64,000 nucleotides of DNA from Eledone cirrhosa (Eukaryota). Below the pieces are notes generated by a model that worked only from the letters and a program-made list of their open reading frames with translations, searched no databases and was not told where the DNA came from. The stretch is taken from contig OZ024744.1 of assembly GCA_964016885.1 (NCBI GenBank), positions 51,522,001 to 51,586,000 on the forward strand, written 5' to 3'. This document shows, in pieces, positions 74-30,329 of the stretch. Position 1 is the first letter of the stretch, and each line of letters begins with the position of its first letter. A program made the translations under genes and the position numbers.

Positions 74-83
74 CAACAACAAC

Positions 84-143
<60 letters not shown>
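74..143. repeat. (AAC)n/(AAT)n microsatellite, tail or target of Tx1 copy 1
   Basis: Directly visible. Confidence 0.95.
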
Positions 144-145
<2 letters not shown>

Positions 146-405
146 TTTCTTTATTAACCACAAGGGTTTACATAAAGTAGACATTAAGGACAGTGCAGGA
201 CAATGCAGGACGGTACAAATGGGCATTTCTGCGTGTAAAAAAACAAAAACAGAAGATGTAACAAAAATAACAATGAAAATAACAATGAAAAATTCCCCAA
301 TAGGGGGGAGACTTCGGAGGGACATTTGTGGAGAAAGCCCAGTAAAAAGCCACAATGACCCTGACCACCAAGGCAAGTGCCCTCTCCCAGTTTTCCACCT
401 TTAGT

Positions 406-3400
406 TTACAGATATATACTCAGAGTCGGCCCATTCACTCGGGCCATTCTTGCTTCTCTCACCCATCTTTCAACAAAATGCTGGGAAGAGAGCACTTCCC
501 TCTCTACTCTGATTTTCCTTTTCAAATGAAATTTGAAAAAGTCAATCAGAGCATCACCGAAGAGGTAAGTGCTCGTCTTCAGCCCTTTCAAACGTGTCCA
601 CCATACTATCTCTTTCGCCATGGCCACCAGACAGATAAAAACTGCCTGCCCTTCCCGGCTAAAGGAGGAGGGCGGGGCAATCCTCACGATGGACTCAGAT
701 GATAGCTGGATCCGTCCTAAACGCGACAGCAGGTGTTCGACATAAACCCACAAGTCAGCAATTTTCGGACACTGGACGAGTGCGTGCAGGACGGTTTCGT
801 CGCCCTGCGCGCATCTCGGACATGCCCGGCTGACGGCACCTCCATGCCTGTAGAGTTTATCCCGAACTGGCAAGGCTCCTCGGTAGCACTGCCAGGCCAG
901 AGATTTCTGGAAGTTGTCCATAGGCCCTGGCCCGAAAGTTCTTCCGAAGAGATTGGCTAGTTGATTTTCGTCGACGCCTAGAGTTTCCCCAAGTACGTCG
1001 TCGCTCTTCCCCTCCACTAATCCTCTATAGAACGCCGAGGTGGAGTTTCCACCGATCACATTGCCCGATTGGTCGAGGGCTGTGAGCGCCTGAAGACATT
1101 CCAGTCTCCAGGCGCTCCCTCTCGGTCTTCGCTTGACCCAGGACTGCAGCTCCGTCAAGGAAACGAGCTGGGGAAAAACGCGTCTAGCAAACGGCGACCA
1201 CACCTGATCACCGTCGAGGAAGAGGTGGAGATGTCGTAGCCTGAGCGCGTGCCTGCGCATCATCAGCCACGGCATGCCCAGCCCTCCACGTAGCGGGTGT
1301 TGACAACAGATGGACCGCCTGACCATCGGAGCACGTCCCTTCCACAAAAAGCGAAAGAGCAAACGCTCCAGCGCAGTCAGGCGAGGCTTAGGACAAGGTA
1401 CGACGGTTAGGCGGTAGCAGATGACAGACGCGATGTACGCGTTAGCCACCTCCGCTCGACCTTTCAGGGATAGCTTCCTCTCCGCCCATTTCTGGGTGAG
1501 AGAAGCCACCCTGCTCGTCACCTCGTCCCAGTTTTTGTCCGTCTGGAGGTCCGGACCGAACCAGACCCCTAGCAATTTAACCGGTCCGTCCGTCCAGCGC
1601 CCGACGACGCTGTTGGACGGCATGGACCTGCCTCTCCAGGTGCCGAGCTGCAGGCCCACTGACTTTTCCTGGTTGATCATTGCTCCTGTCACCGCTTCGT
1701 ATTCTCTTAGTGTAGTGCCGATCGCCTCGATGTGTTTGGCGTTCGACACCACTACGGTGACATCGTCCGCATATGCTGACACGGATCTTCCGCATCCTAG
1801 TTCGCGCGGGACTCCCCTCAACGTCTCCAGTTTGTGCAGTAATGGCTCGAGAGTCAATACGTACAAGAGGGACGAGAGGGGACATCCTTGGCGGACCGAG
1901 CGCATGATGTTGAACGGTTCCGACAGGTGACCGTTCACTCTCACCACAGAGCAGATGTCGCTGTGCATGGCAGCGATCCAGCCTCTGAAGACGGGCCCAA
2001 AGCCAGCCGCCCTCAGGACTGCCGCTAGGTAACGATGGTCGACCCTATCGAAAGCTTTCGACTGATCTAAATTGATCAAGGACCCACCCGTGCCAGGTTC
2101 CCTAGCTACCCTCTCTACGATGTATCGCATGAGGTGGAGGTTGTCGTGGATGGATCTGTCGGGAATGGCGCATGTCTGCGCCTCTCCCACCAGACCACCA
2201 ACGACAAGCGCCAACCTCTTTGCTAGCACCTTGGCCAAAATCTTAAACTCTGTGTTTAGCAGAGTTATGGGCCGGAAATTGTCTATGTTATCCCCCTTGT
2301 TCGGATCCTTTCTCAGCAGTGCCACCGCTCCTCGGCTCACAGAACTGGGAATTCTCCCGTTCTGTTGCCAGTTGCAGTAGACGTCCGCCAAGAGGCCTCC
2401 GAACAAGTCTGGCATCTGTACGTAAAGTTCATAGGGCAGACCATCCAAACCAGGCGATTTACCCCTTGTGCAGCCAGTCATTGCCTCCCGTACTTCAGCG
2501 GCTGTTATCGGCTTTTCGCAACACCTCGCCTCAGTGGCCGAGAGCCGCGGCAGCCCGTCGAGGTAGACACTAAAGTCCATCCCTCTACCCGGCCCCCCGC
2601 TGCCCCCGAACAGCTGAGCGAAGTGTCGCTGAAAAGTTTCACACATTTGCCCGGGATCGAGTAGCATGCGCCCGTCGTGGTCCACCAAAGACCGGATCGT
2701 GGCTTTGTTGCCACGACGCGCCTCCGCCACTCGGGCCCATTGAACGGCTTTCGTCCCCTCGTGTCTGAGAGCACGCACCCTAGCTCTGACAACGCAGCCT
2801 TCGTGCTTTGCATTGAAGAATTGGTCAAGGGCCAATTTCGCCGCAAGCACGTCGGTCGCAATGCCTTTGCTAAGCGCCTCGTCTAATTTTCTAACTAGTT
2901 CTCCCTCTGCTCTATTTTTCTCTATTGCTAAAGCCTTACTAAACCTAATCGATTCTATTCTAATCGCTCTTTTCAGAGCAAACCACCACTTGTTGTTGAC
3001 GATGGCCCCCGTCAACGCCCGCTTAACTAGTTCGCTAATCCGGTCTCTGTAGGCCTTGCGCGCTGGTAAGGACGCGTTTAGCTTCCAGTAGCCGGGTCCT
3101 CGTCTATGAAGCCTATCTAAGTCAAGCACACAGATCACGAATTTGTGGTCCGTGTAGCTGACTATCTTGAATTGTGGACAGCCTATGCTAGACCTATCTA
3201 TTTCCCTACAAAATACTCTATCTAGATATGATCTGGATGACCCTATGCGGTTTGTCCAAGTCCACATTGGCACATTCGGGAAATCCAATCGGTACCTGTC
3301 AGACAGTTCAAAACGCCTGAGCAGGTTGGTGAGGCTCTTGCACCCTCCACCCCTATCCGCTAATCCCACACAGTCCCAGCGTGCATCTAAGATCCCGTTC

Positions 3401-3825
3401 CAGTCGCCCACTAACACTAAAGAGCGGGACGTTCCAAGAAAGGTCTCCAGACGCCGGAAGAAATCAGGCCGCCCTGCTCCTGTCGGGGCATAGACGGCCA
3501 CTAGCCTGAAAGCTTGCCCGTCTCCGCTGGTCACGTCCAGCACCACCAGCTTACCCTCTGGGTCCAGGAAGATGGCCCGTATGGCGAGATCCAAACCTCT
3601 CCGAAAAAGTACAGCAACTCCTCCACCGGATCCAGGACGGCTGGGAGATGCGTACACATCGTAGCCGCCGAAGATCGGTGCGAAGGCCCGTGCTTCGGAG
3701 ATTCTGGTCTCGCTGATGGCCACTACATCTATGTTTAGTGACCTGAGGTCGTTGAGCAGGTGACCCTGCTTCCATGACGACCCCAAGCCACGCGCATTTA
3801 TGCTGCCTATTCTGAGTGAGGTCAT
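406..3825 (-). CDS. ORF2: APE-like endonuclease + reverse transcriptase + C-terminal zinc-binding domain (1139 aa)
   Basis: Endonuclease motifs SINARGL, SETR, GDWN, SYLD, TDH; RT motifs KSPGLDG, FRPITLLN, DQSKAFDRV, RQGCPLS, YADD; C-terminal CPRC..ETVLHALVQC. Confidence 0.96.
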   Translation of the reverse strand: MTSLRIGSINARGLGSSWKQGHLLNDLRSLNIDVVAISETRISEARAFAPIFGGYDVYASPSRPGSGGGVAVLFRRGLDLAIRAIFLDPEGKLVVLDVTSGDGQAFRLVAVYAPTGAGRPDFFRRLETFLGTSRSLVLVGDWNGILDARWDCVGLADRGGGCKSLTNLLRRFELSDRYRLDFPNVPMWTWTNRIGSSRSYLDRVFCREIDRSSIGCPQFKIVSYTDHKFVICVLDLDRLHRRGPGYWKLNASLPARKAYRDRISELVKRALTGAIVNNKWWFALKRAIRIESIRFSKALAIEKNRAEGELVRKLDEALSKGIATDVLAAKLALDQFFNAKHEGCVVRARVRALRHEGTKAVQWARVAEARRGNKATIRSLVDHDGRMLLDPGQMCETFQRHFAQLFGGSGGPGRGMDFSVYLDGLPRLSATEARCCEKPITAAEVREAMTGCTRGKSPGLDGLPYELYVQMPDLFGGLLADVYCNWQQNGRIPSSVSRGAVALLRKDPNKGDNIDNFRPITLLNTEFKILAKVLAKRLALVVGGLVGEAQTCAIPDRSIHDNLHLMRYIVERVAREPGTGGSLINLDQSKAFDRVDHRYLAAVLRAAGFGPVFRGWIAAMHSDICSVVRVNGHLSEPFNIMRSVRQGCPLSSLLYVLTLEPLLHKLETLRGVPRELGCGRSVSAYADDVTVVVSNAKHIEAIGTTLREYEAVTGAMINQEKSVGLQLGTWRGRSMPSNSVVGRWTDGPVKLLGVWFGPDLQTDKNWDEVTSRVASLTQKWAERKLSLKGRAEVANAYIASVICYRLTVVPCPKPRLTALERLLFRFLWKGRAPMVRRSICCQHPLRGGLGMPWLMMRRHALRLRHLHLFLDGDQVWSPFARRVFPQLVSLTELQSWVKRRPRGSAWRLECLQALTALDQSGNVIGGNSTSAFYRGLVEGKSDDVLGETLGVDENQLANLFGRTFGPGPMDNFQKSLAWQCYRGALPVRDKLYRHGGAVSRACPRCAQGDETVLHALVQCPKIADLWVYVEHLLSRLGRIQLSSESIVRIAPPSSFSREGQAVFICLVAMAKEIVWWTRLKGLKTSTYLFGDALIDFFKFHLKRKIRVEREVLSSQHFVERWVREARMARVNGPTLSIYL

Positions 3826-29540: not shown

Positions 29541-29544
29541 ATAC

Positions 29545-29611
29545 CGTAAAGGGCCATAACTCTATGCTGAATGGTGTCCGACGCTCAACCGATTCCATCA
29601 ATCCACCGCCC
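29545..29611 (-). mobile_element. SINE 5' fragment
   Basis: GGTGTCCGACGCTC..AATCCACCGCC. Confidence 0.65.
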
Positions 29612-29618
29612 TAATAAT

Positions 29619-30260
29619 GTTTTCTTTATTAACCACAAGGGTTGACACCAAGCATAACATTAAGGACGGCACAAGACGGTACAAGGCGGGTTTCTGCGTG
29701 TAAAAAGAAACATAAAACAAAAACAAAGGATGTAAGAAAAATAGAACAAAAGAAAATTCCTCAATAGGAGATTTCCGAGGGTTACTTGTGGAGAAAGCCC
29801 ACAAAAGCCACTAACCCTGACCACCCGGGTAAGTGCTCATCTTCAACCCTCTCAGATGTGTTCACCATAAGATCTCTTTCACCATGGCCACCAGATAGAC
29901 AAAAACAACCTGCCCTTCCTAGCGCGGTGATTTTGACTATGGACTCAGCTGGTAGTCGGATCCATCCTACATGTGGCAACAGGTGTTCGACATAAACTCA
30001 CAAGTCAGCGATACTCGGACACTGGACGGGTGGTACTCGGACGGGCTCAGCTGACGGCACTTCTAAGCCTGTAGAGTTTATCTCGAACTGGCAACGCTCC
30101 TCGGTAACACTGCCAGGCCAGGGATTTCTGGAAGTTATAGGCACTGGTGGAATATGGTTTGTCGATTTTCATCGACGTCCAGAGTTTCCCCCAGGAACGT
30201 CGTCGCTTTTACTCATCATTAACCCTCTACAGAACGCCAAGGTGGAGTTTCCACCGATCG
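29619..30260 (-). mobile_element. Tx1 3' fragment with internal deletions
   Basis: Terminal motif TTTCTTTATTAACCACAAGGG; homology to family A positions 144-1060. Confidence 0.85.
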
Positions 30261-30329
30261 TAACAATAACAATAAACTGCTACGCCATCATAACGAATTT
30301 GTAGCCCTGCTGTGTGCAACTAACACATA

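Follow-up and report, generated by a model that had tools for sequence, protein, structure and literature searches.

Several families of long interspersed nuclear elements (LINEs) target microsatellites, among them Waldo (ACAY), Mino (AC), Kibi (TC), Koshi (TTC), and Dong (TAA), the last being TAA-specific in silkworm, mosquito, and a snail according to the relevant passages of PMC3812793. For the Tx1 clade, the corresponding passages of PMC4494074 give (TC)n and (TTC)n as the targets of Kibi and Koshi and (TTCC)n/(TTTC)n as those of crocodilian families. In Bombyx mori, the TRAS and SART elements are described as inserting into the (TTAGG)n telomeric repeats in opposite directions, each with a fixed insertion point in the repeat unit (relevant part of PMC7265360). 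Octopus repeat surveys report Dong-R4 and L1-Tx1 elements as abundant and recently active, and their relevant passages contain nothing on AAT repeats or on element orientation (PMC13282606, PMC8967140). Here we analyze a 64,000-nucleotide stretch of Eledone cirrhosa DNA (hereafter the window; C28:51522001-51586000 of a 3.0-Gb assembly), the left part of which is an array of L1/Tx1-like LINEs with an apurinic-type endonuclease (APE), short interspersed nuclear elements (SINEs), and LINEs with a restriction-like endonuclease (RLE), joined by AAT tracts.

On the best reading of the array, a single microsatellite serves two LINE types that are unrelated and have complementary tails, (ATT)n and (TAA)n. 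Between positions 84 and 30270, the minus strand carries all 16 L1/Tx1-like LINE and SINE pieces, and the plus strand carries all four RLE LINE pieces; the 13 AAT tracts of at least four units read AAT on the plus strand without exception (no ATT), and the element ends carry (ATT)n tails on the minus-strand elements and (TAA)n tails on the plus-strand elements. The original prediction had placed Tx1 elements and SINEs only on the minus strand and RLE elements only on the plus strand, with AAT tracts in one orientation and with ATT and TAA tails, respectively, and these counts of strands, tracts, and element ends bear it out for the array. Its tally of about 20 insertions was inflated, because two units of the array are 99.762% identical, so that tandem duplication, not insertion, produced four of the 20 pieces; at most 16 are independent, and some of these are probably parts of one insertion. 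Its statement that the array holds almost no unique DNA was too strong, in view of a 125-base segment with three genomic copies and about 3 kb of unmatched DNA at 26.4-29.5 kb. The intervals 26400-27200 and 27600-29530 match no library element, and the 801 bases tested from them (27700-28500) are single copy, with no other full-length match in the genome. The components of the array are as follows, with the two L1/Tx1-like families designated Tx1_A and Tx1_B and the two RLE families RLE_A and RLE_B.

84-143, unstranded: (AAT)20 tract, tail of Tx1-like copy 1 and left edge of the array
144-6170, minus: Tx1_A, full-length L1/Tx1-like LINE of 6,027 bases, ORF2 and ORF1 both open
406-3993, minus: Tx1_A open reading frame (ORF) 2, 1,195 codons, with endonuclease, reverse transcriptase, and zf-RVT
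3861-6005, minus: Tx1_A ORF1, 714 codons
6171-6197, unstranded: (AAT)9, with the Tx1_A 5' end on one side and the tail of the next element on the other
6198-9574, minus: Tx1_B, second Tx1-like LINE, 73-78% identical to Tx1_A in DNA, 5'-truncated in the endonuclease, frame broken into four ORFs
9575-9602, unstranded: (TAA)9 with one interruption, SINE tail and Tx1_B 5' flank
9603-9785, minus: SINE of 183 bases, the last ~25 bases resembling Tx1-like LINE 3' ends
Between the SINE (ending at 9785) and RLE_A (starting at 9798): (TAA)4
9798-10846, plus: RLE_A, 5'-truncated RLE LINE with CCHC and restriction-like endonuclease region, 91% identical to young copies
10820-10846, plus: (TAA)9 tail of this RLE_A copy, the element body being 9798-10819
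10847-10971, unstranded: 125-base local DNA segment, with a single genomic copy (97%) besides those of the two units, 443 bases left of the window
10972-21839, unstranded: second 10.9-kb unit, starting with (TAA)13
11012-17038, minus: Tx1_A of the second unit
17066-20442, minus: Tx1_B of the second unit
20471-20653, minus: SINE of the second unit
20664-21714, plus: RLE_A of the second unit
21715-21839, unstranded: 125-base segment of the second unit
21840-21915, unstranded: (TAA)25 tract
21916-21965, minus: 3'-terminal 50 bases of a SINE
21972-22727 (body to 22707), plus: young 5'-truncated RLE_A with a short tail, 99.6% identical to a copy on another chromosome
22728-23306, minus: 3'-terminal 580 bases of Tx1_A (99.0%), tail to tail with the young RLE_A copy
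23310-23632 and 23648-23744, minus: two Tx1-like 3'-end fragments, split by an AAT tract at 23633-23647
23745-25915 (body to 25894), plus: RLE_B, degenerate RLE LINE with reverse transcriptase fragments, 36-39% identical to RLE_A in protein
25150-25563, plus: RLE_B endonuclease region
25895-25915, plus: AAT tail of RLE_B
25916-26095, minus: SINE copy (82%)
26104-26396, minus: divergent Tx1-like 3' end
27198-27581, minus: divergent Tx1-like endonuclease fragment
29537-29608, minus: SINE fragment
29621-30259, minus: Tx1-like 3' end with the ORF2 C-terminus

The strand rule was assessed genome-wide in 63 fetched loci, of which 20 were chosen by RLE_A, 20 by SINE, 12 by (AAT)15 only (the first on contig C1), and 8 by the Tx1_A 3' end; the other 3 were left-flank stretches. 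The loci were annotated with natural probes taken from the window and from one of the loci (L008); hits shorter than 60 bases, the second unit of the duplication, window positions beyond 30270, and hits cut by a locus end were dropped before counting. Among 3' ends reaching the end of the probe, APE LINEs were followed by ATT in 33 cases and by no repeat in 2, never by TAA or by both. SINEs were followed by ATT in 19 cases and by neither repeat in 13, again with no case of TAA or of both. RLE LINEs showed TAA at 58 of 68 ends, with ATT at 1, both at 1, and none at 8. For the 5' boundaries, RLE_A 5' probe hits and part of one probe found to be flanking DNA were also excluded. All eight full-length Tx1_A copies had ATT at this boundary, 5'-truncated APE LINEs had ATT in 12 cases, TAA in none, and no repeat in 38, and 5'-truncated RLE LINEs had TAA in 32, ATT in none, and no repeat in 44; the SINE boundaries gave 14 ATT, 2 TAA, and 25 without repeat.

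Neighboring pieces followed the same rule. Of the 36 pairs of unlike class lying at most 150 bases apart, 33 were in opposite and 3 in the same orientation, two of the latter being artefacts of the flanking part of a probe and one a real Tx1_A/RLE_A junction (L035). Adjacent pieces of like class, at the same distance, had the same orientation in 81 cases and opposite orientations in 8; four of these 8 were probe artefacts, two came from one internal inversion in L030 that entered the count twice, and the other two were a pair of inverted SINEs in L033 and two RLE_A copies lying head to head in L008. At the 12 loci selected by (AAT)15 only, a library element lay within 160 bases of 25 of the 30 tracts of at least five units, and all 42 element-tract neighbors had the predicted polarity. 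The same rule held at loci with different orders of elements on at least five chromosomes. The prediction that two endonuclease types use opposite strands of one repeat had been coupled to an orientation test of each family across the genome, with random orientation and duplication alone named as outcomes that would speak against it. Fixed polarity was found instead of random orientation (1,550 of 1,604 Tx1_A junctions against 1 and 459 of 722 RLE junctions against 4 of 1,415, both described below; 33 of 36 pairs; 42 of 42 neighbors), while duplication accounts for about a third of the array only, the same polarity being present at dozens of differently arranged loci.

Tx1_A has the layout of the L1 group and Tx1, with an N-terminal apurinic-type endonuclease, a reverse transcriptase, a C-terminal zinc-binding region, and a separate upstream ORF1. 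In Pfam, ORF2 matched Exo_endo_phos (3.3e-14), RVT_1 (1.1e-28), and zf-RVT (7.9e-08), and ORF1 gave no match above threshold. The best relative of ORF2 among solved structures is human L1 ORF2p (6e-53, 183 bits), and an alligator protein named 'transposon TX1' by its source scored 320 bits (BLASTP 285) in a different database, so that the two comparisons can be set side by side in bits only. The closest named relative of the Tx1_A protein is a hypothetical protein of the octopod Argonauta hians (69% identity). Assignment of Tx1_A to the Tx1 clade is thus suggested indirectly, by similarity scores rather than by phylogeny.

Elements of this L1/Tx1-like type end in (ATT)n and have (ATT)n on both sides. 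The nine full-length Tx1_A 5' ends examined all read ...ATTATT|GAATGCC. The first 26 bases of Tx1_A occur 1,604 times as exact matches in the genome, in 1,550 cases directly after (ATT)4 and in one phase, and the pattern of opposite polarity within 2 bases of the 5' end was matched once genome-wide. Such 5'-junction counts are those of sequence-specific insertion, a trait common in the Tx1 clade. Many of the Tx1_A 5' ends form runs of two to four on one strand with a spacing of ~6.06 kb, for example at C1 114792134-114810533 and 55429677-55455624. These runs are head-to-tail arrays of full-length copies joined by ATT tracts, which duplication as well as re-insertion could yield.

The RLE families combine a reverse transcriptase with a C-terminal CCHC and restriction-like endonuclease region and have no apurinic-type endonuclease. 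RLE_A is highly abundant: a first look gave 48,100 candidates, and the 150 of them that were scored had 95-100% identity. Longer copies contain an ORF of 843 codons; its reverse transcriptase has R2 proteins as the nearest relatives among solved structures (1.6e-25), and RVT_1 is its sole Pfam family of endonuclease or polymerase type. Over its C-terminal 193 residues, RLE_A shares 73% identity with the end of a single-ORF homologue of 1,158 residues (P0001), in which a K-P-D ... D-V stretch aligns, weakly (i-Evalue 10), at the matching position with the endonuclease region of R2; we take the motifs of this C-terminal region to be those commonly named CCHC and PD-(D/E)xK. Pfam returned no restriction-like endonuclease family for the endonuclease ORFs, only a weak L_protein_N match (0.0074, at 25150-25563) and chance-level matches. 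Among 1,818 homologues of the RLE protein none bore an informative name, and the protein atlas contained 'reverse transcriptase' clusters only. Because no match carried a clade name, 'R4/Dong' serves here as a behavioral label for RLE_A. Relatives of the HERO and NeSL type also include microsatellite-specific families, according to the relevant passages of PMC4640811, and target behavior therefore does not fix the clade of the RLE elements.

LINEs of this R2-like type end in (TAA)n and have (TAA)n on both sides. RLE_A 5' ends abut (TAA)n, and each of the 20 focal RLE_A copies has a (TAA)n tail of at least three units; as read from the printed flanks, 14 of these tails are directly followed by another member of the three element classes in the predicted orientation (4 Tx1-like LINEs, 3 SINEs, and 7 RLE LINEs). 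The RLE family 5' end GGGAAGAAGACGCACNNGGTG occurs 1,415 times in the genome (693 forward and 722 reverse). At 459 of the 722 reverse-strand sites (64%), AATAATAA lies at most 3 bases upstream, and the opposite polarity was matched 4 times among the 1,415 sites; only the reverse-strand count was used, because the 738 forward matches count twice those sites that fit two gap lengths.

Two peculiarities of RLE_A copies were also observed. In RLE_A copies of the window (22051-22632 and 10161-10740; compare 4960-5100 of L008) and in the 150 best genomic matches, the endonuclease part is out of frame with the reverse transcriptase, with the shift inside a GA run, and has an open frame of 191-237 codons. 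A split frame in all RLE_A elements was considered and rejected as a query-biased view; a GA-run variant of other length that keeps one frame occurs 5,292 times, and the out-of-frame copies thus represent a large subfamily rather than the whole family. A palindrome upstream of RLE_A in L008 was likewise rejected, being a second, inverted copy of the family beside a 5'-truncated one: the two RLE_A copies (1-2562 and 2623-5657) stand head to head across a 60-base AAT tract.

The SINE shares its 3' end with the Tx1-like LINEs, its last ~25 bases aligning with theirs through the common pattern CCT-T.TG..TA....A..AA. The 3' flank begins with ATTA in 18 of 20 young copies, and 11 of the 20 have exact target duplications of 9-20 bases that begin with ATTA. 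The SINE is not confined to microsatellites and is also found at short ATTAT sites. Since young SINE copies lie at such short sites, the APE-type machinery needs only a short ATTAT(T) for the SINE. Unlike the SINE, full-length Tx1_A is nearly always located inside a longer ATT tract. A tRNA-derived head of the SINE was not supported in the window, where ARAGORN found no tRNA and Rfam gave no match at the gathering score; the head contains words that may be read as resembling box A and box B.

The two partners can be compared with the described systems separately and as a pair. The RLE LINEs resemble Dong in domain order, with a zinc knuckle and a restriction-like endonuclease C-terminal to the reverse transcriptase, and in having (TAA)n both as tail and as target, as far as Dong is covered in the relevant passages of PMC3812793. 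The likeness is one of behavior and, in contrast to Dong, at least two families that differ by more than 60% in protein (RLE_A and RLE_B) behave alike, and the RLE_A copies of the window carry the endonuclease part in a different frame from the reverse transcriptase. Tx1_A agrees with Kibi, Koshi, and the crocodilian Tx1 families in being an L1/Tx1-group LINE with an apurinic-type endonuclease and strict one-polarity insertion in a microsatellite (relevant passages of PMC4494074), whereas its target is (ATT)n, the complement of the Dong target, and it has a partner SINE with a shared 3' end. An (ATT)n target is absent from the relevant passages of both PMC4494074 and PMC3812793, and our literature search, which subscription papers and Repbase reports lay outside, found no (ATT)n-specific Tx1-like LINE and no Tx1/Dong pair on one repeat.

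As a pair, the elements recall TRAS and SART, two LINE families that occupy one simple repeat in opposite directions (relevant part of PMC7265360). However, TRAS and SART are restricted to telomeres, end in poly(A), and both use an endonuclease of the apurinic type, whereas the partners described here have unrelated endonuclease types, tails made of the target repeat, and interstitial tracts genome-wide as their location. A pairing of one apurinic-type LINE and one restriction-like-endonuclease LINE on a common multicopy target is exemplified by R1 and R2 in the 28S ribosomal DNA; those elements occupy different fixed sites in the gene, are not known to generate fresh target as they insert, and follow no known rule of antiparallel orientation. 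Target-specific LINEs and the sharing of a repeat by opposite strands are already known; the array described here combines an (ATT)n target with an unrelated endonuclease pair.

The self-comparison of the window revealed a tandem duplication with a period of 10,868 bases that makes up about a third of the array, 104-11014 and 10972-21882 being 99.762% identical over 10,911 bases. Without their edge tracts, the units span 10,828 bases each and are distinguished by 25 substitutions, with no indels. These differences all fall within 254-4761, inside Tx1_A, and the stretch of 6,210 bases at 4762-10971 is identical. The unit junctions lie in AAT tracts, and the tracts at the unit edges differ in length, being (AAT)20, 13, and 25. 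The duplication is very recent, and segmental duplication is a real second source of array growth. Among 11 other genomic copies of Tx1_A, both states are present at 9 of the 25 sites, with 11 states private to copy 1 and 5 to copy 2. The differences fit unequal crossing-over between independent Tx1_A copies, gene conversion, or polishing error in a high-copy family. Under unequal crossing-over a third copy is expected after unit 2; the Tx1_A fragment at 22728-23306 is 98.5% identical to copy 2 versus 98.7% to copy 1 and thus not closer to copy 2. The 125-base segment (10847-10971 and 21715-21839) has only three copies in the 3.0-Gb genome. It follows an RLE_A tail (...AATAA) in the units and ...GCATAA in the third copy, which is embedded in unique DNA; because this copy lies left of the window and ATAA is shared, we infer that an older duplication or rearrangement brought the segment into the array.

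Contigs of four sequencing runs on 10600-11300 were very deep and short and lay at two element ends only, with no cover on the 125-base segment or across the tracts of that interval, and were therefore uninformative on the duplication and on expression. Runs X4 and X6, which are labeled as other organisms, yielded contigs with at least 95% similarity to the 3' ends of RLE_A (organism B, low depth) and of Tx1_A (organism C, high depth); both families may be common to related species.

Very probably, the array is a pile-up of microsatellite-specific retroelements, the opposite orientations of which likely arise from priming on different strands of one (AAT)n/(ATT)n repeat. By target-primed reverse transcription, a mechanism established for LINEs, an (AUU)n RNA tail would pair with a nicked strand ending in ...AATAAT-3' and a (UAA)n tail with the complementary strand, which reads TTA, and one repeat would thereby impose opposite orientations on the two LINE types. 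Where the APE and RLE kinds meet, they are antiparallel, with few real exceptions. Each insertion would preserve repeat sequence next to its 5' end and supply a new tail at the 3' end, multiplying target tracts on which later copies could pile up, so that the array would act as a self-extending landing pad. The AAT tracts could double as sites of recombination or slippage and lead to tandem duplication.

Several observations weigh against this account. Truncated 5' boundaries are often free of repeat (APE, 38 of 50; RLE, 44 of 76), many of these being alignment breaks, and about 36% of the full-length RLE 5' ends have no AATAATAA within 3 bases. Real polarity exceptions are present in L008, L035, L030, and L033. 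Young SINE copies are mostly outside long tracts, with only 1 of 20 at four or more ATT units, and part of the array has grown by duplication rather than insertion. The strand nicked by each endonuclease is deduced from junctions, and it is on 5' junctions, with no empty site seen, that the tracts would qualify as pre-existing.

One rival explanation treats the repeats as element-borne tails only, with the (ATT)n at the Tx1_A 5' end belonging to the transcript and the clustering having another cause, such as permissive chromatin. Tails are indeed made anew even where the downstream DNA is unique, and full-length 5' junctions by themselves cannot separate a co-transcribed leader from a target. 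However, 5'-truncated copies, which are unable to carry a leader, abut a repeat of the same polarity (12 to 0 for APE and 32 to 0 for RLE LINEs); the target itself supplies the motif in the case of the SINE, since 11 of 20 copies have target duplications that begin with ATTA; and clustering without a strand rule would not yield 33 opposite against 3 same-orientation pairs. We consider this explanation very improbable. Slightly more improbable still is a polar array produced solely by segmental or tandem duplication of a small founding cluster with inherited orientation. The near-identity of the two units, the presence of the otherwise single-copy 125-base segment in both, and the ~6.06-kb spacing of Tx1_A 5' ends elsewhere, for which duplication is possible, all agree with it, whereas the other parts of the array did not arise as copies of one another, the same polarity recurs at differently ordered loci on at least five chromosomes, and the genome-wide junctions (1,550 to 1, and 459 of 722 versus 4) already contradict duplication as the sole cause.

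A narrower doubt concerns the duplication, which could be an assembly artefact in which one unit was laid twice, with a true array of about 19 kb. The identity of the units throughout the 6,210 bases from 4762 to 10971 speaks for this, as do the restriction of all differences to the high-copy Tx1_A, where polishing with multi-mapped reads can introduce changes, and the occurrence of both states in other copies at 9 of the 25 sites. Against this, the tracts at the unit edges have three different lengths, the two Tx1_A copies differ by substitutions only and both retain open frames, and the pattern of differences also fits unequal crossing-over between independent Tx1_A copies, or gene conversion. 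On balance, we regard an artefact as unlikely.

Returning to the pile-up of microsatellite-specific elements, we tentatively propose a broader role for a three-member guild, consisting of an APE LINE for (ATT)n, its SINE, and RLE LINEs for (TAA)n. Such a guild might partition the strands of the repeat, itself produce and lengthen most of the long (AAT)n tracts of the 3-Gb genome, and build strictly polar arrays of tens of kilobases that then duplicate by tract exchange. Because each element class in them is read in one direction only, the arrays could possibly act as single-strand transcription units like the clusters that give rise to PIWI-interacting RNAs.

The array provides a natural case in which target choice, rather than selection or chance, sets the orientation of thousands of retroelement copies, and one in which two unrelated integration systems have converged on opposite strands of a single microsatellite. 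With it, (ATT)n joins the targets of Tx1-like LINEs, and a cause that can be tested is proposed both for the abundance of AAT repeats and for polar element arrays in a large invertebrate genome. Such arrays also mark sites prone to tandem duplication, and each of the two endonucleases is a candidate nicking enzyme with strand and sequence specificity for a simple repeat.

The polarity is a property of the array and not a rule for the whole window. Library probes detected no array in the 30 kb left of the window. Beyond position 30270, an RLE fragment lies on the minus strand (33087-33302), a Tx1-like ORF2 fragment on the plus strand (39282-40824), and SINEs in both orientations; these off-polarity elements are situated at short ATTATT sites, outside AAT tracts. 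The right half of the window has a high density of other microsatellites (30354-30670, 31742-32097, 33908-34183, 34493-34625, and 42650-42929), which are of the types (ACAC/ACAG)n, (TA)178, (TAC)92, (TTCT)33, and (ACT)93, none with a library element attached. A 37-base tandem repeat of about 10 copies at 93% occupies 36119-36472. Three satellites complete the window, namely a 7-kb TGG-derived satellite at 53495-60494 with periods of 21, 42, and 63 and a GC skew of up to 0.97, followed by a 54-base satellite at 61387-63389 (37 copies at 95%) and, rightmost, a GT-rich 10/35-base array at 63391-64000.

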